From positions 62,001-126,000 of the IMG/VR virus record IMGVR_UViG_3300042940_001453: a DNA stretch of 64,000 nucleotides. The stretch is one strand, 5' to 3'. Source of the DNA: an uncultured virus (IMG/VR IMGVR_UViG_3300042940_001453). Lineage: Duplodnaviria > Heunggongvirae > Uroviricota > Caudoviricetes. The notes beneath the pieces were generated by a model. That model was not told the DNA's origin and made no database searches. It saw only the letters and a list, made by a program, of their open reading frames with translations. This document shows, one piece after another, positions 1 through 13,344 of this stretch (the stretch's first letter is position 1; every line of letters starts with the position of its first letter). Position numbers and translations under genes: made by a program.

Positions 1-52
1 AATTGTTTTGGATTGTTAACAAATGTTATGTGTTAATAAACTAAAGACGATT

Positions 53-430
53 ATGGATACAAATACAGCACACGTAATATCTCAACAGGTACTAGAATCA
101 ACCGCACAAGATATGACAGGCAAATATGTCTGGATGTTCGTAGCGGGATTAGTAATTCTAATGTTTAAATCAAGCATTGAAAAACTTGCCGCGGCACTGT
201 TTATGTTTATTGGGTCCGATTACAAAGAAGATGATGTTGTATATATTGATGGCAAACCCGGCAGAATTGTTCGTGTGGGACTTACAAAAACTGTATTTTT
301 CATATATGACGTAGTAGATGGTAAGGTTGTAGGCGGAAGTAAATTAGTTATCCAAAATGAAAGACTAGCTGGTCTAAACATAGAAAAACCACTACCTCAA
401 TTGGATTTAAGCCGTTTCAAAAAAGACTAA
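53..430 (+). CDS. Small membrane protein resembling the MscS mechanosensitive-channel TM/middle-beta region
   Basis: Hydrophobic segment (YVWMFVAGLVILMF...LAAALFMFIG) followed by YKEDDVVYIDGKPGRIVRVGLTKT...GSKLVIQNERL, matching the MscS F/YxxGDxVxIxGxxGxVxxIxLxxT...GxxxxIxN pattern. ATG at 53 preferred to the track start at 23. Confidence 0.55.
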   Translation: MDTNTAHVISQQVLESTAQDMTGKYVWMFVAGLVILMFKSSIEKLAAALFMFIGSDYKEDDVVYIDGKPGRIVRVGLTKTVFFIYDVVDGKVVGGSKLVIQNERLAGLNIEKPLPQLDLSRFKKD

Positions 431-445
431 TTTACTAATTAAACT

Positions 446-2221
446 ATGGCTATTAACATTTTTACCCACATCAAACGTGGGTTATACGATAACGTCTACA
501 ACTGTATCGAAAAAGAAAAAGTAGATGTCAATCAAAGAGACGATGATACAGGCAATCCACCATTGGTTGTTGCTGTAGAAGAAAATCAAGTGGAAATCGT
601 AAAACTACTGTTAAATCACGGTGCAGATCCCAACTGTAAAGATTGGACCAGTAAAAATACAGCACTGGATGTAGCTGAACAAAAAGGTTTTAAAAATATC
701 GCAGAAATACTACAACAAAGAGGTGCAAAATACAGTAGCGGTAGTAGTTTCCATTTAGCCGCAAAAAATGGTGATATCGTTTCTATTGAAGAAATGTTAG
801 ACAAGGGATTTGATATCAATGAAGTTGACGCTGGCAAAGGTTGGACCGCACTACATTATGCAGTAAATTACGGACAAAAACACTTGGTTGAATATCTAAT
901 TGTAAGAGGAGCTGATGTTAACAAGAAAGATTTCTTGGGTAAAAATAATCCTATTGACGTACTATCCAATACCAATAGAGGTGACATTGTTAAGTTATTG
1001 AATAAGTACGGTGCTAAATCCGCAGGAGGTGTTAGTATTCATTTCTGCGCAGAAACAGGAGATTTTGAAGGTGTACAATCGTTCTTTGATAAAGATGGTA
1101 AAATCAATGGCAGAGATGAAAAGAATGGATGGATGCCACTACATTATGCCGTTAACGCTAACGATGTTGATATGGTGGAATTTTTGGTACATTTGGGTGC
1201 GAATGTTAACGGTGCAGATTTCAAAGGTGAAATTGCTCCGTTGGATTTGGCATTTAAGACGGGTAATGTAGAAATGCAAACATATCTGCAATCCAAAGGT
1301 GCTCAAAGAAAAAAGAAACACGATATTGGTGGTGGTGGAAAAGATGTAAACATATACATCACAGATGAAGTTAAAAAGCAAATTGCATTGTTTGTTGAAA
1401 AACGTAATCGTGAAGAAGCTGCAATAAAGAAACACGAAGAAGAACAAGCATCAAAAGAACCAAAGAAAAAAGATGCACCAGCTAAGAAAATTAACTGGAA
1501 AGATTTCTTGAAACTTAAAGATATTCCAGTGGTAGAAAAGAAAGAAGAAAAGAAGGTAGAAGTTGTTAAACCCGTCAAACAAGTTGTCAAGAAAGTTGAA
1601 CAAGTTGATGTAGAAGTCAAATCTGGTAGATTGCAATTGGACGTAGAACAAGAAGGTTATATATTCTTTATGGATATTGTTGCTTATAGTAAGAAAACAA
1701 CAGATGAACAAAAGAAGGCTTGTAAAGATTTGGGTGCATTGGTTAAGTCTACAATGCAATACAAAACAGCTAATGCGCTTGAAAAGTTAATTATATTACC
1801 TACTGGTGACGGTATGGTATTGGGATTCTTTACTTATTTGGAAGATGCAATGAATTGTGCAGTTACTATAGCTAAAGCAGTAAAGGATAGACCGGATTTA
1901 CAAATGAGAATGGGTGTACATTGTGGACCTGTAATACCAATGGAAGATATTAATGGCAATCTCAATATCAGTGGTGATGGTATCAACTATGCTCAAAGAG
2001 TAATGGATGCAGGTGAAAGCAATCATTTGTTGGTTAGTTCAGCAGTAATGTTAAAATATGATAGACCACCATATGTATTAGTAAATGACTTGGGGGATGT
2101 GGTTGTAAAACACGGTGTAGTTATGCATTTGTATAGTTTACACGGTAGTGATTTTGGTAACAAATCATTTCCATCTAGTAGAGTAAAGAAAGCAGAACCA
2201 ACAACAAATAAACCAGTATGA
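446..2221 (+). CDS. Ankyrin-repeat protein fused to a C-terminal class III nucleotidyl (adenylate/guanylate-type) cyclase domain
   Basis: About 9 ankyrin repeats (e.g. GWTALHYAVNYGQKHLVEYLIVRGADVN, GWMPLHYAVNANDVDMVEFLVHLGANVN), a Lys/Glu-rich linker, then cyclase motifs FFMDIVAYS, PTGDG, MRMGVHCGPV, GDGINYAQR. Confidence 0.9.
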   Translation: MAINIFTHIKRGLYDNVYNCIEKEKVDVNQRDDDTGNPPLVVAVEENQVEIVKLLLNHGADPNCKDWTSKNTALDVAEQKGFKNIAEILQQRGAKYSSGSSFHLAAKNGDIVSIEEMLDKGFDINEVDAGKGWTALHYAVNYGQKHLVEYLIVRGADVNKKDFLGKNNPIDVLSNTNRGDIVKLLNKYGAKSAGGVSIHFCAETGDFEGVQSFFDKDGKINGRDEKNGWMPLHYAVNANDVDMVEFLVHLGANVNGADFKGEIAPLDLAFKTGNVEMQTYLQSKGAQRKKKHDIGGGGKDVNIYITDEVKKQIALFVEKRNREEAAIKKHEEEQASKEPKKKDAPAKKINWKDFLKLKDIPVVEKKEEKKVEVVKPVKQVVKKVEQVDVEVKSGRLQLDVEQEGYIFFMDIVAYSKKTTDEQKKACKDLGALVKSTMQYKTANALEKLIILPTGDGMVLGFFTYLEDAMNCAVTIAKAVKDRPDLQMRMGVHCGPVIPMEDINGNLNISGDGINYAQRVMDAGESNHLLVSSAVMLKYDRPPYVLVNDLGDVVVKHGVVMHLYSLHGSDFGNKSFPSSRVKKAEPTTNKPV

Positions 2222-2430
2222 GAACAATGCCTTTAGTAAGACAATATCATCCAAGTATTGTTAATACAGACTTGGATGTATACAAAATAAAGGATAGAGT
2301 TATGGCAGCTCCTATAAATAATCACCCTGATCCATTTCAAGTAATAGATAGACTTGGTATCAATAAGATTAATGCTACCAAAATTAGAACTGTAGTATAT
2401 AATTCCAAAGGTCTTTTTTATATAATATAA
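2218..2430 (+). CDS. Hypothetical small protein
   Basis: 70-aa ORF with an ATGA overlap on the cyclase stop codon, suggesting translational coupling. Confidence 0.55.
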   Translation: MRTMPLVRQYHPSIVNTDLDVYKIKDRVMAAPINNHPDPFQVIDRLGINKINATKIRTVVYNSKGLFYII

Positions 2431-2433
2431 ATC

Positions 2434-2461
2434 TTGACAGTTAGAGTTATATGGTTATACT
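2434..2461 (+). promoter_or_regulatory. Sigma70-type early promoter, probably giving a leaderless mom-like mRNA
   Basis: TTGACA (2434-2439), 16-nt spacer, TATACT (2456-2461); ATG follows 6 nt later. Confidence 0.7.
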
Positions 2462-2467
2462 GAAATA

Positions 2468-3241
2468 ATGTCGGAGTATTTTGACCCCACATTAATTTAC
2501 ATCAAAAGCATCAATAAGAATGTTGCAAAAACTCTTATTGAAAAGAATCATTATACACACAAGTGGTCTCTTTGTACTGTAGCTTATGGAGTATACTATA
2601 AAGAATATGTAGAGAGTACATTCTTTGGTGGTTTTAACGAACGATTAATAGGTGTATTAGTATATGGAAACGCCGTGGGTAGAAATGCTAGTACCAGTAT
2701 CTCTTCACTACTTACTAATAACAATGTGTTAGAATTAACACGACTGTGGATTGCAGATGGTTATGGTAAAAATATAGAAAGTTATTGTATAGCTGAAAGC
2801 TTTAGATTATTAAATACTGAATATCCCCACATCAAATGTATTCTCAGTTATGCGGATAGTGAAGCTGGACACGCAGGCACAATCTATCAAGCAACTGGCT
2901 TTCTATATCAAGGCGATAACTATGTAGATATCGCTATAATGCCTAACTATAGTGTTAGTTTAGTTGGTCCTCCTAACTATGATTGGATACACAGCAGAAG
3001 TGTATATTCAAGATGGAAAACACACAGCGTAGATAAACTAAAAGAACGTATTGGTAGAACATTCTGGCGCAAACGAGAAAGTGGTAAACATCGTTATATC
3101 AAGTTTATCAGTAACAAAATAGAAAATAAAAAGTTGACTAAATCTCTTAAACATAAAGTTCTACCTTACCCCAAAGATACTTCGTTCAAAGAAGAAGTAC
3201 AAGAAATCGTTGTAACATCTACCAACGAATTTTTTGAATAA
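2468..3241 (+). CDS. mom: Mom-like (GNAT-fold) DNA adenine modification protein
   Basis: Motifs KNHYTH, LELTRLW, ILSYADSEAGHAGTIYQATGFLYQG and a C-terminal KHRY...LPYPK, typical of Mu Mom-family proteins. Confidence 0.8.
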   Translation: MSEYFDPTLIYIKSINKNVAKTLIEKNHYTHKWSLCTVAYGVYYKEYVESTFFGGFNERLIGVLVYGNAVGRNASTSISSLLTNNNVLELTRLWIADGYGKNIESYCIAESFRLLNTEYPHIKCILSYADSEAGHAGTIYQATGFLYQGDNYVDIAIMPNYSVSLVGPPNYDWIHSRSVYSRWKTHSVDKLKERIGRTFWRKRESGKHRYIKFISNKIENKKLTKSLKHKVLPYPKDTSFKEEVQEIVVTSTNEFFE

Positions 3242-3494
3242 AAATATGAAAGACTATATTACATTAAAGGATGTAAAATCCAGATACAAAGAAGATTTAT
3301 TATTCGTAAAAACAAACCCGAAACTGTTTATTATTAATTTATTTACGCAAAATAAACAATTTAGACATTGGGAATATATGTGGATCAAAGTAATAATTGG
3401 ACTTATAAGATTATACTTTGTAAGTTTTATATGTAGATGTAAATTTTGGATTGTTTGTATTTTAAGTGGACATTTTCCTTGGGAAATAAAATAA
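3234..3494 (+). CDS. Hypothetical protein with hydrophobic C-terminal half
   Basis: 86-aa ORF overlapping the mom-like stop; no recognised motif. Confidence 0.4.
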   Translation: MNKNMKDYITLKDVKSRYKEDLLFVKTNPKLFIINLFTQNKQFRHWEYMWIKVIIGLIRLYFVSFICRCKFWIVCILSGHFPWEIK

Positions 3495-3496
3495 AA

Positions 3497-4240
3497 CTAA
3501 TATTTTCTTTTATGTAATTTGATCGTGGTTAATGATACTCCATACTTCTCACTTAATGCATTGTTAGTAAAACTACCACTCTTTAAATCATCAACAAATT
3601 CATTCTTTCTAAGCGCAAAATTTCTCTTTTGTTCACTAATCTTACGTTTCATTTCATCACTCATAGCACCACGCTTTTTGCCTTTTAATCCATTATCATA
3701 ACTGTAATTAATATTACGATTAGCCAATTTGTCATTTCTCTCCTTGTACTTAAGTGTACCACTGTCAATACCATACTTGTCAACAAACCACTCCAAAGTA
3801 TAACGTCCTACAGCACGATCACGTTGCCTTTCTTTAGCCTCATCACTATGCTTTTTACCGTGCATAGGATTTTTAGCTCCTAGATTAATATCAGATAGTA
3901 ACTGACGAGTTTCTTCTTTATCAGGATTATGTGTAAAATTATCGCCTCCACTTGCGGTTGGGGTAATATTATAACCTATATCACGCATATAGGGTTTAAA
4001 CATATCTAAATAAAATTGTTCTCGTTTAAACAATTCACATTCTATTACATTTTCTAATATAATAAATTCAAAACTGTTTTCCCCGTAAAAATCCCAAGCG
4101 TGTTGTAATTTAGGATTCTTATGTTTATTCTTTTTTAAATCATTTTTATGTTCCCACCAACGACGATCAATATCTTTAGCAGAACCAATATAAAACTTGC
4201 CATTCTTAACATTTGTAATTTTGTATATACCACTTTTCAT
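3497..4240 (-). CDS. Free-standing GIY-YIG homing endonuclease (Seg/I-TevI-like) with NUMOD3-like motif
   Basis: N-terminal SGIYKITNVKNGKFYIGSA...RW..H, REQFYL, GYN; NUMOD3-like NPMHGKKHSDEAK; possible C-terminal HTH. Confidence 0.9.
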   Translation of the reverse strand: MKSGIYKITNVKNGKFYIGSAKDIDRRWWEHKNDLKKNKHKNPKLQHAWDFYGENSFEFIILENVIECELFKREQFYLDMFKPYMRDIGYNITPTASGGDNFTHNPDKEETRQLLSDINLGAKNPMHGKKHSDEAKERQRDRAVGRYTLEWFVDKYGIDSGTLKYKERNDKLANRNINYSYDNGLKGKKRGAMSDEMKRKISEQKRNFALRKNEFVDDLKSGSFTNNALSEKYGVSLTTIKLHKRKY

Positions 4241-4244
4241 ATAA

Positions 4245-4277
4245 TATAAGTATATACAAGTTCTATGGTAATGTCAA
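4245..4277 (-). promoter_or_regulatory. Sigma70-type promoter overlapping a late-type motif, upstream of the GIY-YIG gene
   Basis: Minus strand TTGACA (4277-4272), 17 nt, TATACT (4254-4249); overlapping TACTTATA (4252-4245); ATG at 4240. Confidence 0.7.
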
Positions 4278-4297
4278 TTATTTTTTATTAGTGCAAG

Positions 4298-4326
4298 AAA
4301 AAACCCCAACTTTCGTTGGGGTTTTT
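4298..4326 (-). terminator. Rho-independent terminator after the major capsid gene
   Basis: Minus strand AAAAACCCCAAC-GAAA-GTTGGGGTTTTTT: perfect stem, GNRA loop, U tract. Confidence 0.9.
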
Positions 4327-4350
4327 GAGTTATTTTATTTCTACTAAGTA

Positions 4351-6177
4351 TTATACGGTATCGAGATCGCCGATAATAACTTTTCCATAGAACTCTGGGC
4401 GCACTACCTTCTTAGCGTAGCGGGTCATTACGCCTCTACGTGGAGTGAAGTTCACTGGATCATAGACCAATGGAGTTTGGATTAGTGGGATATATGGAGC
4501 ATATACAGCACCGGTTTCTAGGAAGTTGTTTCCACGGAAACCAACCAATACTACGTTATCGGTCATGTATGGGTTCTTGTAAACTTGGAAGCGAGAAGCA
4601 AAGCTACCAACGCGGCTTACGCCCATTGCGAACTTAGCTTGATCACCATCAGTGTTTACTACATATCCTGGGATTGATTCTAGGATAGTTGCAACGTCTG
4701 GACTTACGACCAAGAAGTTTGCACCACCACGTAGGGTCAATTTTTGGATTGTGTTAGATACCTTTTGGATCTTGTTTCCAAGAGTTTGGAACCAAGTGCT
4801 CTTTACGTAAGCAGTACGGTTTGGTGAACTGTTTGCATTACGTGTGAAGATTGCTTCACCAGTAGTTGCATTCAATCCCTTGCTGAATTCAACACCGATT
4901 TGGGCGGACCAAGCTTCGGTTGTTATGCCTTGAACGGCTTCGTTCAACATGTCTAGGATTTCAAGATCGATTTCCATAGATACATATTCACTCAATAGAG
5001 CAGTAAGTTCTGCTTCTGCGTCGATGGAGTGATATGCGTTCAAGTCTTGAGCCAATTCTGGGGTCCAGACTGCTTTCAACTTACGGGTCTTAGCAACGAT
5101 TGGTTCGCTGTTTAGTACCAAGTTTACTTCTGGGATACTGATATCAGTATCGATGCTTTGTGTAGGAACGTTACCAGCGGTACCGGAACCTTCACCTGGG
5201 GTCTTACCAGCTTCGAAGTCACCACGTAGGTTATCGGTAGGTTGTAGACTATAGATCAACTTAACGTTGCTTGCTGCACCACCGAATGCGCTATTAGAAG
5301 CGGATACGATATATACGGATTGATAGAATGGATTGCTCAAACTACCAGTGTTAATTGCTTTTGAATAGGTGTTCAATACCAAACCATTGCTTCTTAGAGA
5401 AGTTGGTGCAACTGAACCTGAAATCAAGTTGAATGAACGTACTGCGTTCAAGTCAACGTTGTACATATATCCTTGACCAGCAACACCAGTGGTGTTGTCG
5501 TCGTGGTTCAAGATAACCTTGAACAACTTCTTAGCTACGACAGATGCGCTTAATTCAGCAGCAAATTGAACGTCGTTCCAAGAAGCGGTTTGGATGGTGT
5601 TACCAGTTGCGGTTGCAGTTGCACTCTTAGCTAGGGTAATAGCAGAGCTACTTACTGGACGAACTGAATAAGCAAAAGCACCTTGACCGTATAGACCACG
5701 TACTGCGTCATCAGTTGAACCCAACTTCTTACCTGTACCACCAAACAAACTGTCGTTCAATTGCTTACCTGCACGGGTAGTTACGGAACTACCGTTGTTC
5801 AAGTTACGCAAATCACTACCAGGAGCGGTTGTACCATACTTGAAGTCTAGATAGAAAATTAGACCAGATGGTAGATTCATTGGTTGTACGCTGACGAATT
5901 CCTTAGCGGCGATTTCAGCGAATACACGACGTACCAATGGTAGAGCTACACCAGCCCATTGTTCTGAACTGGTAGAGGTACCGGTGGTGGTTGCTTCGTC
6001 AAGCAATTGTTTTGCTTGGTTTTCCAATAGGATTGACATATGTGCTTTTTCAACACCTTGGCAACCTTCTAGGAGGCCTGTCTTTTCCCACTTGGATTGT
6101 AGTCCACGTGTTTCAGCCATCAATTTGGCTTGTGGATTCATATTTCCTGTCAATAGACTTTTTACATCCATACTCAT
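4351..6177 (-). CDS. Major capsid protein (T4 gp23-like)
   Basis: KWEKTGLLEG, LENQ, LPLVRRVF, VSVQPMNLPSGLIFYLDF, AKTRKLKAVWTPELAQDLNAYHSIDAEAEL, YAPYIPL, FTPRRGVMTRY are gp23-family hallmarks. Confidence 0.95.
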   Translation of the reverse strand: MSMDVKSLLTGNMNPQAKLMAETRGLQSKWEKTGLLEGCQGVEKAHMSILLENQAKQLLDEATTTGTSTSSEQWAGVALPLVRRVFAEIAAKEFVSVQPMNLPSGLIFYLDFKYGTTAPGSDLRNLNNGSSVTTRAGKQLNDSLFGGTGKKLGSTDDAVRGLYGQGAFAYSVRPVSSSAITLAKSATATATGNTIQTASWNDVQFAAELSASVVAKKLFKVILNHDDNTTGVAGQGYMYNVDLNAVRSFNLISGSVAPTSLRSNGLVLNTYSKAINTGSLSNPFYQSVYIVSASNSAFGGAASNVKLIYSLQPTDNLRGDFEAGKTPGEGSGTAGNVPTQSIDTDISIPEVNLVLNSEPIVAKTRKLKAVWTPELAQDLNAYHSIDAEAELTALLSEYVSMEIDLEILDMLNEAVQGITTEAWSAQIGVEFSKGLNATTGEAIFTRNANSSPNRTAYVKSTWFQTLGNKIQKVSNTIQKLTLRGGANFLVVSPDVATILESIPGYVVNTDGDQAKFAMGVSRVGSFASRFQVYKNPYMTDNVVLVGFRGNNFLETGAVYAPYIPLIQTPLVYDPVNFTPRRGVMTRYAKKVVRPEFYGKVIIGDLDTV

Positions 6178-6229
6178 ATTTTTGTTTCTTTCTATATTAA
6201 TTACTGTTAGGTTTTTACTCGCAAACTAA

Positions 6230-7306
6230 TTACTTCTTGATTCCTGCGAGTTTTTGGAATCTTGAAGCCATTACTTCAGCTTGAGGTTCTACAATGGTAG
6301 AATCAGGCTTTGTACTGGATACTGGTTTGCTTGCCAAACCTTCGGTGATAGTTTGAGCAGTTGTATTGGTCTTTTTCTTGACAACTGATGCACCGGAATT
6401 AAGTGATTCGGCTAAAACTGTATATGCCAACTTGACTTCACGAATATTCTTGGTCAAGTCGAAAGTGTTGATGATCTTCAACTTTTGATCTTCGGTAAGA
6501 GCTTTACCTTTGAACAATTTGTTGGTGTAGAGCAACTTAGCATTCAATAGATTTGTTTCAGATAGAACACTCTTCAAATACTTTACAGTCTTGATGTGTT
6601 CGCTCAATTGAGACTTTAGTTGTTCGTTTTCTTCGTTGATAGCTACTAGAGCTTCTGCCATTTCTTCAGCGGATACTTCTTCTGAGTATTCACCTTCTGA
6701 AGGAGATGGAACTTGAGCTGGGGCTGGAGCTGGTACTTCAGCAGCTGGAGCGGCTGGAGCAACAGGAGCTTCTGGAGCTGGAGCAGGTGCTGGTGCAGCT
6801 GCTGGATCTTCGCCTTCTAGTTCTGCTAGAAGTTCGTCTAGATTAATTTCTTCTTCCATTGAATCATCAGATTCACCGGCATCGTCGGAATCTCCTTCGG
6901 ATACTACTTCACCTTCTAGTTCTGCTAGAATTTCGTCTAGTTCTTCACTAGTTACTTCAGCACCTTCTTCAACGGCAGCTTCTTCTTCAAGCTTTACGTC
7001 GAATTCTTGCTTACCTGCTGGAGTTGTGTTTTTATTTGAAGCTGGTGATGGTTTGGTTGGGTGTTGTTTTGTAGCAACATTGCTGTCATCCTTACCAATG
7101 TTAGAAGATGCAAGTTTTTCTTCAATCTTGCCTTCTTCACCTTCTGGTGCTTCGGTTTCTTCTGCCATTTCTTCCTTGAGTTTATCTGCAAACATTTCTT
7201 TCATACTGTTTGCAAAACTTTCTTCGAGGAAGGTCTTTGCATTTGCCAATGCTGTTTCACGTACAGCCTTTGCATCCGCAATGCTTTCTTTTAATAGATC
7301 GCTCAT
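6230..7306 (-). CDS. Prohead scaffolding/core protein
   Basis: Acidic coiled-coil protein directly upstream of the MCP, with an Ala/Pro linker and C-terminal RFQKLAGI. Start at 7306 (MSDLLKE) follows an AGAAAGG RBS; the track's longer start is unlikely. Confidence 0.8.
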   Translation of the reverse strand: MSDLLKESIADAKAVRETALANAKTFLEESFANSMKEMFADKLKEEMAEETEAPEGEEGKIEEKLASSNIGKDDSNVATKQHPTKPSPASNKNTTPAGKQEFDVKLEEEAAVEEGAEVTSEELDEILAELEGEVVSEGDSDDAGESDDSMEEEINLDELLAELEGEDPAAAPAPAPAPEAPVAPAAPAAEVPAPAPAQVPSPSEGEYSEEVSAEEMAEALVAINEENEQLKSQLSEHIKTVKYLKSVLSETNLLNAKLLYTNKLFKGKALTEDQKLKIINTFDLTKNIREVKLAYTVLAESLNSGASVVKKKTNTTAQTITEGLASKPVSSTKPDSTIVEPQAEVMASRFQKLAGIKK

Positions 7307-7407
7307 AATTATATTTCTGCCTTTCTTATTGTTATTTGTTGGTGAAGCTATTGAAGAACTCCAAAGAAGATAAATGTATGTGACATCAAAGAATGATGTA
7401 TTTGAAT

Positions 7408-7456
7408 AATAAATATAATTTAAAATTGAAACAAATGAAAATATTTTATATTTATT
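7408..7456. promoter_or_regulatory. Back-to-back divergent late-type promoter motifs
   Basis: TATTTATT on the minus strand (7415-7408) toward scaffold/MCP and TATTTATT on the plus strand (7449-7456), 5 nt before the ATG at 7462. Confidence 0.6.
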
Positions 7457-7461
7457 GATAT

Positions 7462-8055
7462 ATGCCTGCAAAAAGCGAAAAACAAGCCAGACTATTTAGA
7501 TTGGTAAGAGCACTACAAAAAGGTGGAATCAAATCAAAAGAAGTTTCACCACAAGTTCGTAAGATGGCACGTACCATCAAACCAAGTAGTGTAAAACACT
7601 TTGTTAAATTGAAAGAAATATTGAAAAGTCTTAATGAAGCAGAATATTCATTAAGTGATTTTGATATCATTAAAGGCAAATCATTTAACCAAGTGCTAAA
7701 AGAAAATGAAGGTATTGCGTTTACTAAAAAAGAAATGTTAACTTTTCAAAGTAAACAAGCGGGATTTAGTGGATTTGGAAAAACAAATTTTATTCCTAAC
7801 CCACCAGAAAATACAAAAATAGAAACTGAAATATTTAGTAATGGTAGTACCAAGAAATATGTGTTTAAAAAGCTCATAGATCAAAAAAATGAAAATTTAA
7901 TTGTATATGCTTGTTTTATTCAAAGATCTTATCCTGATAAACCAGACAAAGAAATATTCAGTATGTTAAGTACTGCTTTGGATAAGAATAAAGATTCTGA
8001 ACAAACAAAAACCCTATCTGACTTTATAGATAGAATTAACTCTTATGGCCTATAA
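7462..8055 (+). CDS. Hypothetical protein, possibly head-associated
   Basis: 197-aa ORF with basic N-terminus MPAKSEKQARLF, internal LKEILKSLNE segment and a late-type motif upstream. Confidence 0.7.
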   Translation: MPAKSEKQARLFRLVRALQKGGIKSKEVSPQVRKMARTIKPSSVKHFVKLKEILKSLNEAEYSLSDFDIIKGKSFNQVLKENEGIAFTKKEMLTFQSKQAGFSGFGKTNFIPNPPENTKIETEIFSNGSTKKYVFKKLIDQKNENLIVYACFIQRSYPDKPDKEIFSMLSTALDKNKDSEQTKTLSDFIDRINSYGL

Positions 8056-10524: not shown

Positions 10525-11386
10525 TTTTGACATCAATCTTTTTAATTTCTTCTATCAATTCGTATACATTTAACAATGAAGTCAATTGATTTTCTTTAAT
10601 TACGCCAACACAAGATTTTGTTGAAAACTGACTAATAACTTCATTTATTTTAATTTTAACCACTTCAGAGGTAACATTCTTCACTTGATCTTTTAATACT
10701 CCACTTATTCTCTTGTACTCTTCGTTGACGTATTTTGTAAATTTACTGGAGTTGGAAACATTAGTAATATATTCTTTTAGAAGTTTCTTTTGATCTGGCA
10801 AAAGATTGTTGTATTTGGTATTGAAGTTTTCAATCAAGAATTTATAGGCCAACAATCTAACTTCAGCACTTTGATTTCCATAAACATCCATCATTTCTTG
10901 TTCTGACTTCTTTTCTTTTGTTAAGCTCTCAACAATATATTCTCTTGATTCTAACAATTCAGATACATCAAACTTGACTTCACTTTTATCTTGATCTTCA
11001 AATAATTTGTATATAGAGGCGTATAACTTATAATTTGGAATTTTATTTTTCAAAAATTCGTCTATATTATACTTCTCTTTTATTTCTTTAATTATGTTGT
11101 ACTTTTGCTTGTTCAATTCGCGTTCATCTAGTTTGGAACGTGTTTGCAAAACAACATTCAAAAGACGTTCAGCGGAAGAAGCATCTTTGCTTTTTTGTTG
11201 TAGGATGAAATTGTAAAGTTGCACTTCTTTTCCTAGTTCTTTGCTTTCGTGAAAATACTTGAACATCAGATTTTTGGTAAATGATTCATCTCTCCCCGCT
11301 AGAATGTCGGCTGTTATTTGTCTAGTGAGTAGTTCAAACAATATTCCAGCATTCTTGAATTTCGAATGTTTTGCTTTCTTGTGCAT
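10508..11386 (-). CDS. Hypothetical helical protein downstream of portal
   Basis: 292-aa ORF (KHSKFKNAGILFELLTRQITAD...); TATTTATA at 11410-11403. Confidence 0.8.
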   Translation of the reverse strand: MHKKAKHSKFKNAGILFELLTRQITADILAGRDESFTKNLMFKYFHESKELGKEVQLYNFILQQKSKDASSAERLLNVVLQTRSKLDERELNKQKYNIIKEIKEKYNIDEFLKNKIPNYKLYASIYKLFEDQDKSEVKFDVSELLESREYIVESLTKEKKSEQEMMDVYGNQSAEVRLLAYKFLIENFNTKYNNLLPDQKKLLKEYITNVSNSSKFTKYVNEEYKRISGVLKDQVKNVTSEVVKIKINEVISQFSTKSCVGVIKENQLTSLLNVYELIEEIKKIDVKNEAKS

Positions 11387-11442
11387 ATTATTTATTATTA
11401 TTTATAAATATAATCAATGTGGTTAAATATGTAGGAATTATA

Positions 11443-13344
11443 CTATTCTTTTATATTTTGTTCATCCATAAAAGATTTTTTACTTCCCTCTCGTAATATT
11501 TCTTTTTCTTGGTCTAAAGTTTTTAGTACATCGGTCAATCCTTTAATAGATTCTAGTGATAGCGGAGACTTGTTTTTATACTTGTGCGTCACAGACAAAT
11601 CACTACGTCTATTGTTTTCTAATGTACCCAATGGATCTTCGCCAAATCGATAATCACGTGCATCTTTTCTACCAGTTTGATCACGTTCTGCTAATTTTGG
11701 GGGTGTTGATTTTTCCCCACCAGTTTCACCACCTTTTGGTTCGCCTCCACCTGGCGGTTCTCCGCCTGGCTCACCGCCAGCTGGCTCGGCGCCGCCTGGT
11801 TCACCACCTGGCCCACCACCGGATCCACCGGCTCCTTCTTTATCGTCCTTGTTTAAGAATGATAATGCTGGATCATTGCCTTCTTCTTCGATTTGTTTAA
11901 ATCTATATGTACCTTTAGCATCATCGATAAGTTGTTTTTGCAACTCAATCATATCTTGATCTGATAAACCAAAAATATTTTCATAGATCCACTTCTTAGA
12001 AAATACTTTTTGTTCTTGCATATCTTTGGAGAGCTCGACTTTGCTTTTATATACGTCGATCTTTTCTTTTTCAAAGATAGTAGATGGATTGGTCAATTCC
12101 AATGTAAAATCGACCAACGATTCATCTCTATATCCTTGTGAATATAAATGAATAACCGCAATCTTATTTAACTCACTTACAATAATACGTTGAATACGTT
12201 GAACAGTTCTAGCAAAACGTATATCTTCAGCTGCCAATGTAGCTTTACCGCTTAGACTTTCATCATAACCTAAAAATGCTTTGGGAATCTTAAGCGCTGC
12301 CATCATTTTGTTACGCAGATATTCAATATCATCAGTACCTGTCCATTCTAGACCAGACAAGTTTTCGATACTTGTACCACTATCACTACCACGAACTGGC
12401 AAGAAAAAGTCTTCTACCATGTTCTGCAAATTGAATCTTAAATTGTAGTCGCCTGTTTGTTGATCCAAATATGGTACTTTTTTCATTTGATCCATAATGC
12501 GTTGCATATGGTTATCAACTTCATTTGGAGGAATATTACCGATGTCAACCTTGAAAATACGTTTTTCAGGAGCACGCATAATACGATGAATTAACATTGC
12601 GTCTTCCATCAAACTCAATTGTTTCCATACGCGACGAGCACCTTCTAAAGAACTTTTTCCGTATGGCAAAAAGTTACTATCACTCAACAAACGAAAATGT
12701 GCAATTTGATAATTTTCCAGATCTTCTAGTTTATTACCATATGGAAGGTTGACTTGGAACTTAACAAAATTCTTATTTGATAAATGTGCGTTTTCTACAC
12801 GGGTTACATAATAAGTGCTCAATGGTTCTACCAAATAAACACCATATTCAGGGCTAATATGTAAACGTAGATAAAAATCTCCGTATTTGACCATACAACG
12901 AGTCCAACTCCAAAGATTGAATTCGATGTTTAAAATGTCATAAAACAAATTGTGTAGAATTTGCTTGATTTCATCGTTGGATGATTTGATATGAATTACT
13001 TCACCCATTTCATTTCTAGTTGTACATTCATCTGCATAGATATCCAATGCAGATGCTAGAATTGGATCCATATCCATTGTATCATAATCACGAAATAGTT
13101 CTACACGACTACTTTGATATGATAAATTGAAATCTCTTGTGTATTGATTATATGAAGTGGTGCGTAATCTATTAAAACGATCTCTTAAACTATTACGATC
13201 TGTAGCATACTGAATTTCGTCAGTATCAATTACTTTTAATTTTTTACCACCGATATTACGAACAATTACATCATTTGAAAACAAACGTTTCAAACGTGCA
13301 AATAATGAACGATTGCGTAATTCTTGAAAAGATTTATCTGCCAT
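11443..13344 (-). CDS. Portal protein (T4 gp20-like)
   Basis: YGKSSLE, LMEDAMLIHRIMRAPEKRIFKVDIGN, EDFFLPVRG, DIEYLRNKMMAALKIP, EDIRFARTVQRIQ; Gly/Pro/Glu-rich C-terminal linker. Confidence 0.95.
   Translation of the reverse strand: MADKSFQELRNRSLFARLKRLFSNDVIVRNIGGKKLKVIDTDEIQYATDRNSLRDRFNRLRTTSYNQYTRDFNLSYQSSRVELFRDYDTMDMDPILASALDIYADECTTRNEMGEVIHIKSSNDEIKQILHNLFYDILNIEFNLWSWTRCMVKYGDFYLRLHISPEYGVYLVEPLSTYYVTRVENAHLSNKNFVKFQVNLPYGNKLEDLENYQIAHFRLLSDSNFLPYGKSSLEGARRVWKQLSLMEDAMLIHRIMRAPEKRIFKVDIGNIPPNEVDNHMQRIMDQMKKVPYLDQQTGDYNLRFNLQNMVEDFFLPVRGSDSGTSIENLSGLEWTGTDDIEYLRNKMMAALKIPKAFLGYDESLSGKATLAAEDIRFARTVQRIQRIIVSELNKIAVIHLYSQGYRDESLVDFTLELTNPSTIFEKEKIDVYKSKVELSKDMQEQKVFSKKWIYENIFGLSDQDMIELQKQLIDDAKGTYRFKQIEEEGNDPALSFLNKDDKEGAGGSGGGPGGEPGGAEPAGGEPGGEPPGGGEPKGGETGGEKSTPPKLAERDQTGRKDARDYRFGEDPLGTLENNRRSDLSVTHKYKNKSPLSLESIKGLTDVLKTLDQEKEILREGSKKSFMDEQNIKE

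Follow-up and report, generated by a model that had tools for sequence, protein, structure and literature searches.

An ankyrin-repeat protein with a predicted class III nucleotidyl cyclase domain in an uncultured aquatic phage

Described cyclases and phage ankyrin proteins

Bacterial immunity and physiology depend heavily on cyclic nucleotides. Phages that destroy or sponge such signals are known, for example by means of anti-CBASS and anti-Pycsar nucleases (available text of PMC9117128). A phage that synthesises a cyclic nucleotide would follow the opposite strategy, and no paper describing phage-encoded cyclic-nucleotide synthesis was found in a literature search. In the available text of a jumbo-phage review (PMC7824862) ankyrin is absent and the passages on cyclases concern other enzymes.

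The soluble class IIIc-type adenylate cyclases share their fold with the cyclase homology domain (CHD) of the phage protein described here. The structures compared were 3mr7 of Ruegeria (Silicibacter) pomeroyi, Rv1900c/LipJ (1ybt/1ybu) and Rv1264 (1y10/1y11) of M. tuberculosis and Ma1120 of M. avium (4wp9). All have the metal-binding Asp pair, the Arg and the Asn/Arg at the same positions as the phage CHD, but identity to the latter is only 20-24%. The base pocket is Leu/Asn/Gln in the phage CHD and Lys/Asp/Ala in these enzymes, the base-contact residues of Ma1120 being given as K101 and D157 in the available text of PMC4215837. Unlike them, the phage protein has an N-terminal ankyrin module and is encoded by a phage. 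Rv1900c likewise departs from Lys at the first base position, where the alignment has Asn. M. tuberculosis Rv0386 has Gln and Asn at the two specificity positions and is an adenylate cyclase with guanylate side activity, so a class III cyclase can function without Lys/Asp. It shares with the phage CHD the Asn at the Asp position, and its further modules are an ATPase and LuxR, with no ankyrin repeats.

Pycsar PycC and the cGMP-making Pucsar cyclases resemble the phage CHD: fold and catalytic chemistry are of class III type, the base pocket is not the Lys/Asp one, and the setting is a phage-bacterium conflict. PycC, in contrast, comes from bacteria and has a partner effector, a TIR or transmembrane protein that binds cNMPs, which the phage records searched do not contain. 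The original prediction had linked the gene to Pycsar signalling, and this link is reduced to an analogy. When the cyclase domain was searched by itself, the PADLOC profile PDLC00734 (PycC) aligned with 30 residues at 11 bits and E 0.042, and the PycC profiles gave no match to the whole protein at E <= 1. The cNMP-binding domain PF00027 was found in none of three phage records (G000, 45% complete; G001 and G002, both rated 100%), in a search where 11 of 14 control genomes were positive. The specificity residues of PycC are also other ones, namely Y50/D94/R97 or F100/R142/Q144 in the available text of PMC11224242.

Phage ankyrin proteins that act on eukaryotes are described for a sponge "ankyphage" (ANKp) and for Wolbachia phage WO (10.1101/608950, PMC5062602). 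These repeats are encoded by tailed phages, as are those of the ankyrin-cyclase protein. As far as the available text of these sources goes, they are directed at eukaryotes and apparently lack such an enzyme domain, whereas the ankyrin-cyclase protein shows no sign of export.

The same pocket and catalytic residues as in the phage CHD are found in an unnamed subfamily with the motifs LPTGDG, N-[VI]-[AS]-G and AQR. The literature search found no biochemically characterised member of it, and activity is therefore deduced from residue conservation alone. The motif LPTGDG was not found in article text, while supplementary material (Table S1 with the Pucsar preprint, for instance) might position the subfamily in the tree of that preprint.

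Domain layout and active site

The window, which is the whole stretch of 64,000 nucleotides that was analysed, is part of a T4-like viral record in IMG/VR that is 132,463 b long and has a CheckV completeness of 45%. The record carries genes for the major head protein, protease, portal, large terminase and tail sheath. The gene thus resides in an uncultured, large, water-dwelling phage, and terminase identity to the nearest cultured phages is just 51-56%. A giant eukaryotic virus was considered as the source and rejected, the head, portal, terminase and sheath genes being of tailed-phage type. The features of the locus are as follows.

23..430, + strand: h135, upstream neighbour, 135 aa, small MscS-beta-domain-like (a lead only)
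446..2221, + strand: ankyrin-cyclase gene, 591 aa, stop TGA at 2219-2221 (open reading frame and translation)
446..733, + strand: ankyrin triplet 1, residues 1-96 (Pfam ankyrin families; three-unit self-alignment)
734..1021, + strand: ankyrin triplet 2, residues 97-192 (Pfam; self-alignment)
1022..1309, + strand: ankyrin triplet 3, residues 193-288 (Pfam; self-alignment)
1310..1645, + strand: Lys/Glu-rich linker, residues 289-400 (composition; full-length model)
1646..2203, + strand: class III CHD, residues 401-586 (PF00211; subfamily profile against PDB; model)
1673..1675, + strand: codon of D410, first metal-binding Asp in FMDIV (aligned with 3mr7 and Rv1900c; Asp in 156/156 subfamily domains)
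1796..1798, + strand: codon of L451, at the adenine-specifying Lys position (3mr7 KTTGD against LPTGD; Leu in 136/156)
1808..1810, + strand: codon of D455, second metal-binding Asp in TGDG (aligned with 3mr7 and Rv1900c; 156/156)
1907..1909, + strand: codon of R488 in RMGVH, conserved cyclase-core Arg (aligned with 3mr7 and Rv1900c; 156/156)
1964..1966, + strand: codon of N507, at the adenine-specifying Asp position (3mr7 DIFGD against NISGD; Rv1900c; Asn in 149/156)
1985..1999, + strand: N514-Y-A-Q517-R518, with transition-state Asn N514 and Arg R518 (N in 154/156, R in 156/156)
2218..2430, + strand: h70, downstream neighbour, 70 aa, start ATG overlapping the cyclase stop (ATGA)

About nine ankyrin repeats in three similar triplets, joined by a charged linker to a class III cyclase, had been read from the sequence, and this layout was confirmed by Pfam, self-alignment, composition and fold. 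The Pfam ankyrin matches of the open reading frame are strong (Ank_2 2.6e-38, Ank 4.7e-37). The repeats are nine units of 32 residues that group as three similar triplets of 96 residues. The pairwise local scores of the triplets lie 15-31 sd over shuffles, with identities of 25/69, 28/92 and 35/95, the last being units 2 and 3 (z 30.6), and the full-length model has helix pairs all along residues 5-283. NCBIfam matches of the whole protein are confined to the ankyrin repeats and include Legionella Ank effectors, and at E <= 0.01 none of the cyclase models in NCBIfam is matched. PADLOC PDC-M72A, a bacterial defence-related ankyrin protein, matches with 2.5e-30. The N-terminus (MAINIFTH...) has no secretion signal.

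The linker contains 27 K, 14 E and 8 D in its 112 residues and is predicted to be largely disordered. The full-length model has one long helix at residues 307-337 (nt 1364-1456) in addition to low-confidence stretches, with pLDDT below 50 at residues 291-304, 342-345 and 364-390. Identity to the six-repeat families is 10-19% in the linker, against 44-57% in the cyclase domain.

The PF00211 match of the CHD is marginal (23.2 bits against a gathering cut-off of 21.9) and covers residues 478-566 alone, corresponding to the second half of the family. The AlphaFold2 model of residues 395-591 has a pLDDT of 94.4 and matches solved class III cyclases with a Foldseek E of 3.3e-11 and, in VIA, with Z 18-20.3 and rmsd 2.2-2.6 A over 156-167 residues. 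Rv1264 gives a VIA Z of 20.3 (rmsd 2.5 A, 156 residues); Ma1120, Rv1900c and one eukaryotic guanylate cyclase also reach Z 19-20. The subfamily profile gave 2.9e-12 with 3mr7 and 9.4e-10 with Rv1900c, its best PDB matches spanning 2.9e-12 to 2e-08. Structure prediction and comparison with cyclases, one way in which the original prediction could be checked, thus placed the domain with class III cyclases by both methods. PycC chains were not among the Foldseek rows or the 50 VIA-align entries listed, which is no evidence of different folds.

The catalytic positions were assigned through HMMER alignments to 3mr7 and Rv1900c. The two metal-binding Asp and the transition-state Asn and Arg seen in the original prediction are indeed present, as D410, D455, N514 and R518, and its hand alignment of Leu and Asn at the Lys and Asp positions was right (L451 and N507 against 3mr7). 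The codons of D410, L451 and D455 were confirmed in the nucleotide sequence. All five catalytic positions are present, R488 presumably having a phosphate-binding role, and each is kept in 154-156 of the 156 subfamily domains. With L451 and N507, the phage CHD has neither the canonical adenylate cyclase signature (Lys in KxxGD with Asp/Thr) nor the canonical guanylate cyclase signature (Glu with Cys/Gly). The titles of the structure entries for the Ma1120 KDA-to-EGY mutant agree with the latter signature. Q517 is at the position of the third change in that triple mutant, the AqR of the subfamily profile aligning with AAR of wild-type Ma1120 and AYR of the mutant, and Gln is at least 90% conserved there in the subfamily alignment (A1). 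A homodimer prediction with two cyclase domains from the same alignment gave a score of 0.07 (mark 0.42), which speaks neither for nor against pairing.

Subfamily, distribution and neighbouring genes

The Leu/Asn pair is not a peculiarity of the phage. It is part of the signature of a very large, mostly bacterial CHD subfamily with 4742 representatives at E <= 1e-3 in the protein library. In the LPT motif, L was found in 136, P in 150 and T in 147 of 156 domains, and the Asp position is Asn in 149. The phage CHD has LPT before the second metal Asp, the Asn, and Gln before the transition-state Arg, and is 40-51% identical to subfamily members. Verrucomicrobiota and Acidobacteriota account for most of the cellular members. 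Domains of the subfamily are fused to TPR, Ser/Thr kinase, FHA, PD40 or nuclease modules, and stand-alone forms such as P0199 also occur; one member, P0166, has a predicted pPIWI-associated nuclease domain. The NCBIfam models TIGR03903 ("TOMM system kinase/cyclase fusion") and TIGR04510 cover the subfamily in part. Ankyrin repeats were found in 0/28 of the scanned representatives outside the ankyrin group, and among all those scanned only in P0124 and P0126, both of the six-repeat group. The phylogenetic tree against cellular homologues shows that the phage ankyrin-linked CHDs branch within the bacterial subfamily. All 19 that were sampled fall in one set with an SH-aLRT of 99, which also contains one long-branch row flagged by the tool.

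A search of 5.8 billion proteins gave 199 relatives, and the JGI pipeline already labels the fusion "ankyrin repeat protein/class 3 adenylate cyclase". In IMG/VR 87 related viral stretches were found, of which 76 loci were kept (72-100% identity), and a sister family with six repeats accounts for 40 further viral stretches. No match to the ankyrin-cyclase was found among 50,697 deposited phage genomes, megablast of window positions 1-8000 against deposited phages gave no match, and the cyclase domain alone has no PHROG family (0 at E <= 1). That the domain combination is unusual for a phage is thus true of deposited genomes but not of uncultured contigs, where it is common. A near-identical cellular homologue, which would have spoken for a recent passenger, was sought and not found. 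In a search with one genome per species (185,579 species), the best of 557 genomic relatives, mostly from metagenome-assembled genomes (MAGs) of Verrucomicrobiota and Acidobacteriota, reach 40-47% identity and have no ankyrin part. One close homologue, P0080, is filed under a Verrucomicrobiota MAG.

The gene is long resident in phages, as the 87 and 40 stretches and the single set in the tree show. It is also autonomous of its context, since a 95% identical copy lies in different genomic surroundings within a complete relative of 295,831 b. Strong purifying selection is observed, with dN/dS of 0.02-0.05 in the folded domains. Compared with the copies in two related loci (L020 and L025), dN/dS is 0.03-0.05 for the ankyrin part and 0.02-0.04 for the cyclase domain; that of the linker is 0.12 against L020 and 0.05 against L025. 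The dS is 0.5-0.8 in these comparisons and rises to saturation across the phage family.

The usual gene order is a lipoprotein gene, the small MscS-like gene and then the ankyrin-cyclase gene. h135 immediately precedes the cyclase gene in 69 of the 76 viral loci, and a relative with 30-39% identity lies inside the locus in 20/38 of the six-repeat family. h135 may be a small MscS-like protein, a lead that comes from its nearest Atlas cluster, which is viral and in which 33% of the members carry PF00924. h135 itself matched neither Pfam nor PHROGs, and a Kyte-Doolittle scan gave no 19-residue window above 1.6. h70 is retained downstream in most related loci (67-100% identity) and has no Pfam or PHROG family match. 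Neither h135 nor h70 has a cNMP-binding domain, and PHROGs and Pfam gave nothing usable for h86 and the lipoprotein-like upstream protein of 321 aa.

The slot after h135 is occupied by the ankyrin-cyclase gene in 63 of 69 assessable loci. In six of these 63, three further genes come next: one barrel-like, one for a canonical membrane cyclase and one phosphohydrolase-like. The same trio without the ankyrin-cyclase is found in 4/69 loci and the phosphohydrolase-like gene alone in 2/69. These counts are of contigs, many of them near-identical, and not of independent lineages. In one related phage locus (L200) the canonical membrane cyclase has 479 aa and lies at 4399-5838. Some phages therefore have the ankyrin-cyclase together with a canonical Lys/Thr cyclase, and the two should not be redundant, which could mean that their products differ.

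Proposed function and competing explanations

The reading that we favour, and hold to be reasonably probable, is that the gene is a phage accessory gene for an active cytoplasmic class III nucleotidyl cyclase that is tethered to a protein partner by its ankyrin repeats. In the infected cell, a second messenger is probably produced by the phage itself, to judge from the residues retained. Two C-terminal CHDs would pair head-to-tail, with D410 and D455 holding two divalent metals and R488, N514 and R518 handling the phosphates and the transition state, and the putative reaction would convert an NTP to a 3',5'-cyclic NMP and pyrophosphate. The base pocket would be formed by Leu451, Asn507 and Gln517. 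Because this pocket replaces Lys/Asp, the product cannot be inferred from sequence, and because L451 removes the base contact of canonical adenylate cyclases, even cAMP is a prior expectation only. As priors, cAMP has slightly less than an even chance, cGMP or a mixture of purines is possible but clearly less so, absence of any cyclase activity is unlikely and a pyrimidine or other nucleotide somewhat more unlikely still. Since the phage records searched lack a cNMP-binding domain, the messenger would act on host receptors, with a possible role in host takeover.

The nine ankyrin repeats would be a protein-binding module on a long, flexible and poorly conserved linker. They may tether the cyclase to a protein of the host or the phage, or raise its concentration there, and could also favour the pairing of two catalytic domains. 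The original prediction had proposed a sensor-gated enzyme, a view that finds no support in a linker that is predicted to be disordered, poorly conserved and less constrained. A tether fits better than a rigid allosteric coupler, and gating through a rigid signalling helix would not be expected.

A narrower version of the favoured reading is a plain, constitutive adenylate cyclase that floods the cell with cAMP and reprogrammes CRP-type regulation, the ankyrin repeats being incidental. The closest solved relatives (3mr7, Rv1900c and Ma1120) are all adenylate cyclases, and a canonical adenylate-type cyclase lies in the same island of related phages, so that manipulation of cAMP seems to be part of their biology. 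We nevertheless find this version doubtful, as the change from Lys/Asp to Leu/Asn is conserved throughout the subfamily, the presence of a Lys/Thr cyclase beside it in a single phage argues against redundancy, and the ankyrin domain is constrained as strongly as the enzyme and is thus not incidental. It is unlikely that the Leu/Asn/Gln messenger is something other than cAMP and one arm of a self-contained envelope module that controls permeability, lysis timing or phage exclusion. Such a module would consist of the variable island (ankyrin-cyclase, canonical membrane cyclase and phosphohydrolase-like gene) behind the lipoprotein and the mini-MscS-like protein. If true, this would be a phage-borne second-messenger circuit and give a first assigned function to a subfamily whose bacterial members number in the thousands. 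A non-canonical messenger (cCMP, cUMP, cGMP or other) could instead jam or pre-empt host cyclic-nucleotide immunity or exclude competing phages, and we rate this as slightly less likely again. The pocket with two carboxamides (N507 and Q517) and a Leu would suit it, as would the pPIWI-associated nuclease fusion of P0166. Asn reads uracil in a cUMP receptor and some CD-NTases (available text of PMC11224242), and enzymes related to the Pycsar cyclases are able to change over to cGMP, as shown in the available part of a preprint (10.64898/2026.08.12.744502). The likeness to PycC profiles and to the published PycC specificity residues is however absent, as is a cNMP-binding effector from the three phage records. 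A phage that made the alarm signal of its host would normally damage its own prospects, and most subfamily members belong to signalling proteins of soil bacteria with kinase or TPR modules, a setting that resembles housekeeping signalling.

The weak PF00211 match and the deduction of activity in the subfamily from conserved residues leave some room for a nucleotide-binding or scaffold pseudo-enzyme that works through protein binding only. Pseudo-cyclases usually lose the metal Asp, Arg and Asn/Arg residues. Here these are kept in 154-156 of 156 domains and the dN/dS of the cyclase domain is 0.02-0.04, which makes a pseudo-enzyme improbable. The probability is smaller still for an effector aimed at a eukaryote, either a grazer or the animal host of the bacterium, as in the sponge-symbiont phage and phage WO. 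Bacterial effectors directed at eukaryotes typically have ankyrin repeats, the two sources given above (as far as available) describe phage ankyrins that act in this way, and the Legionella Ank matches point in the same direction, over the repeats only. Against this, the protein has no secretion signal, the phages come from open-water type samples, a lytic T4-like phage leaves little time for export, and ankyrins are also found in bacterial defence-related proteins such as PDC-M72A. Least probable of all is a recent passenger gene taken from the bacterial host. The filing of P0080 under a bacterial MAG would agree with it, but it is contradicted by the distance of the best cellular relatives and their lack of the ankyrin part, by the divergence within the phage family (72-100% identity, dS up to saturation) and by the existence, in viral contigs, of a deeply separated sister family with six repeats.

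Uncultured aquatic phages carry the gene in abundance, and its domains are cleanly separable. The protein thereby offers an easy entry to the chemistry of the Leu/Asn/Gln subfamily, and the phages that have it beside a canonical adenylate cyclase provide a natural comparison of two products.

A scan of window positions 1-4400 gave 17 promoter-like sites against 21.6 expected, with no excess over chance, and 3 terminator-like sites against 1.8 expected, which is the chance level. RNA-library contigs from four studies lie on the gene with a likeness of 90-99%, for example one of 426 nt with 6 differences. They are a weak hint of transcription, since they carry neither strand information nor a DNA control and DNA carry-over is possible. 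The RNA runs each contain 0.05-0.07 of the sampled words, and window positions 1-4300 are covered in part, with gaps such as 2449-2880 (four runs), from which nothing follows. The RNA libraries that contain the gene are labelled aquatic, freshwater and riverine.

The ankyrin-cyclase protein and its active site

The ankyrin-cyclase gene (window 446-2221, +) is a single open frame of 591 codons. Ankyrin repeats are matched over residues ~24-293 (Pfam, Ank_2 2.6e-38) and form three similar 96-residue units (residues 1-96, 97-192 and 193-288), with three 32-residue repeats in each. Alignment of the units to one another gave local scores of 15-31 sd over shuffles, which bears out the nine repeats in three triplets of the original prediction.

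The cyclase domain is matched only marginally by Pfam (PF00211, adenylate/guanylate cyclase; 23.2 bits, cut-off 21.9, residues 478-566 only). A phmmer search with residues 395-591 against 1.84 billion cluster representatives returned 4742 proteins at E<=1e-3, of which 550 reached E<=1e-30. The A1 profile, built from the query domain and 29 short relatives, matched the solved class III cyclases 3mr7 (2.9e-12), Rv1900c (9.4e-10) and Ma1120 (~2e-08). The AlphaFold2 model of the domain made from A1 has a mean pLDDT of 94.4. Its structural matches are adenylate and guanylate cyclases of class III, with a Foldseek E of 3e-11 and a VIA-align Z of 18-20 (rmsd 2.2-2.9 A across 152-178 residues). This is a genuine cyclase domain. 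In the HMMER alignments, with codons confirmed, D410 and D455 align with the metal Asp pair, R488 with the core Arg and N514/R518 with the transition-state pair; L451 is at the Lys and N507 at the Asp of 3mr7. Profile, fold and alignments thereby support the enzyme and the residues claimed for it, and the sequence features described for the fusion gene are confirmed.

The linker between the two domains (residues 289-400) has 27 Lys, 14 Glu and 8 Asp in 112 residues. A full-length model (pLDDT 80, pTM 0.74), built on the A2 alignment of 28 family members, shows helix pairs over residues 5-283, then one long (307-337) and one short helix (351-357), and a cyclase domain starting at ~residue 400, with pLDDT <50 at residues 291-304, 342-345 and 364-390. 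Across the family no part is less conserved than the linker: its identity is 42-61% against 65-87% for the domains, and falls to 10-19% against 44-57% for the cyclase domain. Its dN/dS is 0.05-0.21 and exceeds that of other parts in most comparisons that gave a value. Because the linker combines low pLDDT, poor conservation and higher dN/dS, the ankyrin module would tether the enzyme to a partner protein, or concentrate it there, rather than act as a rigidly coupled sensor.

Pocket residues and comparison with Pycsar

The residues at the base-specifying positions were compared in an alignment of 156 domains: the query, six ankyrin-linked members (P0116-P0121) and 149 listed representatives (P0122-P0270). 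Proteins P0002-P0115 are close copies (at least 74% identity) that would be counted many times and were excluded. None of the 156 departs from Asp410, Asp455, Arg488 or Arg518, and 154 have Asn514. At the Lys position 136 domains have Leu, 15 Ile, 3 Val and 2 Arg; at the Asp position 149 have Asn, 4 Asp, 2 Ser and 1 Thr. The third pocket position, Gln517, is at least 90% conserved in A1; it directly precedes the transition-state Arg and coincides with the third changed site of the Ma1120 KDA-to-EGY mutant (AAR vs AYR). On this alignment the Leu and Asn residues are a subfamily hallmark and not an oddity, and their phage-specific interpretation was an over-reading.

Among 30 representatives scanned with Pfam, the domain occurs alone or fused to TPR arrays, a Ser/Thr kinase (with or without TPR or FHA), PD40 repeats or a predicted pPIWI-associated nuclease; PF00211 is weak in all 30 (23-38 bits), the two-domain P0135 excepted. 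A scan of one genome per species gave 557 relatives, the best 80 of which have 40-47% identity and are nearly all from Verrucomicrobiota (Chthoniobacterales, Udaeobacter) and Acidobacteriota MAGs. Motif and phrase searches of the literature found no biochemical work on the Leu/Asn/Gln subfamily.

An analogy with Pycsar had also been drawn. The PADLOC profile of PycC scored E 0.042 and 11 bits against the cyclase domain, and the whole protein matched ankyrin models only. The cNMP-binding domain PF00027 was found in none of three phage records (the window's record and two related records rated complete), against hits in 11 of 14 control genomes. On these sequence comparisons the Pycsar-like reading goes too far and the ankyrin-cyclase is not Pycsar-like. 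The available passages on PycC specificity give Y50/D94/R97 in BcPycC and F100/R142/Q144 in EaPycC, with metal Asp D102/D146 (PMC11224242). Mapped by metal-Asp offset, that is by numbering only, these positions correspond to F408/L451/T453 of the phage protein, which would be the counterparts of the PycC specificity residues. The available passages of the Pucsar preprint (2026; 10.64898/2026.08.12.744502) describe two immunity-linked cyclase clades, and no mention of ankyrin, kinase or viral forms was found in them.

The mechanism favoured as most likely is that of an active, dimeric class III cyclase, tethered by its ankyrin repeats, which would make a cyclic mononucleotide inside the infected cell. 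The leading prior for the product is cAMP, although this is far from certain.

Phage residence, selection and expression

The parent IMG/VR record (132,463 b, 45% complete by CheckV) encodes major head, protease, portal, large terminase and sheath proteins. Among cultured phages, Microcystis phage Mel-JY01 (56%) and Flavobacterium phages (51%) have the closest terminases. A search of 5.8 billion proteins gave 199 relatives out of 619 candidates, nearly all full-length fusions with a cyclase part 55-99% identical. The JGI annotation of relatives reads 'ankyrin repeat protein/class 3 adenylate cyclase'; the ankyrin-cyclase is already auto-annotated in metagenomes, and a literature search found no published description of a phage ankyrin-cyclase. 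IMG/VR contained 87 related stretches, of which 76 loci were retained (72-100% identity), and a six-repeat sister family (P0117 type, found in Tara samples too) added 40 stretches, which lie in 38 loci. Neither the deposited phage genomes (50,697 records; tblastn, E<=1e-3) nor PHROGs gave a match to the cyclase domain.

In a quick maximum-likelihood tree of 166 domains, nine nine-repeat and ten six-repeat or other ankyrin-linked domains form one set (SH-aLRT 99). This set also includes the long-branch P0136, flagged as a possible long-branch artefact. Compared with the copies in loci L020 and L025, dN/dS is 0.03-0.05 for the ankyrin part and 0.02-0.04 for the cyclase part, at dS 0.5-0.8; comparison with copies further away gives a saturated dS for most parts. 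The ankyrin-cyclase is a phage gene of long standing.

The L020 copy (6001-7776) and the window copy encode proteins that are 95% identical, yet dS is 0.47-0.67. Their genomic contexts differ, and the head proteins of the two phages are 71% identical. Judged from these sequences, the gene has moved or been rearranged while the protein sequence stayed nearly fixed.

Runs indexed as RNA contain 5-7% of the sampled words of the gene. Short contigs from four such runs (four studies with aquatic, freshwater and riverine labels) match it at 90-99% likeness, among them one of 426 nt (6 differences) and one of 180 nt (3 differences). Transcription of the gene or of close relatives would be compatible with such contigs, which carry no strand and may stem from DNA in the libraries.

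Gene neighbourhood and a second cyclase

The gene lies within a short plus-strand block that faces the minus-strand structural genes. Its neighbours in the block are:

L078 (related locus) 11012-11977, +, 321-aa lipoprotein-like protein, N-terminus lipobox-like (ILTGC), immediately before window position 1
23-430, +, h135, directly 5' of the cyclase gene
2218-2430, +, h70, 70 aa, its ATG overlapping the cyclase stop (ATGA)
2468-3241, +, Mom-family DNA-modification gene (PF25680, 1.2e-44)
after the Mom-family gene, 86-aa ORF, last of the block

In the 321-aa protein a long polar stretch is probably coiled, and a segment at ~residues 190-225 is strongly hydrophobic; its gene is upstream of h135 in most loci. 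The h70 gene, which has no family match, is conserved downstream of the cyclase gene in most loci; this and the overlap of its ATG with the cyclase stop suggest translational coupling. Of the promoter-like sites in this region, the best one (TTGACA-16-TATACT, 2434-2461) precedes the Mom-family gene, which may therefore be a separate transcription unit. A GIY-YIG homing endonuclease gene (3497-4240, -) separates the accessory block from the major head gene. Some related loci have it, and others lack it and have the head gene immediately after Mom, a pattern expected of a mobile endonuclease. The 15-nt cyclase leader (431-445) is AT-rich without a Shine-Dalgarno-like purine run, which may point to a host that dispenses with such runs, as Bacteroidota do; Flavobacterium phages are among those with the closest cultured terminases.

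The h135 gene is directly upstream of the cyclase gene in 69 of the 76 related loci; four of the remaining seven are cut at the gene, and in three (L020, L049, L059) the cyclase gene is elsewhere. In G001, a complete relative of 295,831 b (major head protein 71% and cyclase gene 95% identical), the cyclase gene is ~16 kb away from h135, and thus does not need fixed neighbours to work. Of the 38 six-repeat loci, 20 contain a distant relative of h135 (30-39% identity), whose distance and strand vary. The h135 gene is more conserved than the cyclase gene (82-87% identity where the latter has 72-75%). It has no Pfam or PHROG match, and no 19-residue window is above the standard hydropathy threshold. 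Its nearest Atlas cluster is viral, and 33% of the members carry PF00924, the MscS beta-domain family; an MscS-like nature is a lead only.

G001 also carries, in stretch L200 (G001:C1:269001-279000):

1847-2368, +, 2H phosphoesterase (2'-5' RNA ligase superfamily; PF13563, 3.4e-10)
4399-5838, +, second cyclase, 479 aa (PF00211, 94.9 bits)

The order in G001 is 2H phosphoesterase, lipoprotein-like, h135, 213-aa signal-peptide protein, membrane cyclase and 258-aa protein. The second cyclase has two hydrophobic segments either side of ~150 residues, and its pocket is of the canonical Lys/Thr type (KFIGDAVM, YTVTGD); among solved structures it comes closest to a phytochrome-cyclase chimera (7.8e-31) and to P. 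aeruginosa CyaB (2.4e-29). The presence of both in a single phage argues that the canonical and Leu/Asn cyclases are not redundant. The 2H phosphoesterase, found just upstream of the lipoprotein-like gene in G001 and 3 h135 loci, scores 19.3 bits against the Acb1 family, below the cut-off, and could be a cyclic-nucleotide-cleaving counter-defence enzyme. By Atlas features, the 258-aa protein has as neighbours clusters named 'metal-dependent phosphohydrolase' (PF28239, score 0.96) and viral clusters in which 15-23% of the members have PDEase_I, a lead towards a phosphohydrolase-like protein.

Of 80 loci anchored on h135, 11 were too short and were dropped, leaving 69 assessable (at least 2.5 kb downstream); the contigs behind them come from many samples, are in many cases near-identical and largely coincide with those of the 76 IMG/VR loci, and their counts describe a pattern and not independent events. 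The genes behind h135 form a variable, probable cyclic-nucleotide island. In 63 of the 69 the ankyrin-cyclase comes after h135, and six of these then carry the trio of 213-aa gene, membrane cyclase and 258-aa gene. The trio comes directly after h135 in 4/69 and the 258-aa gene alone in 2/69, so that the trio replaces or follows the ankyrin-cyclase in 10/69.
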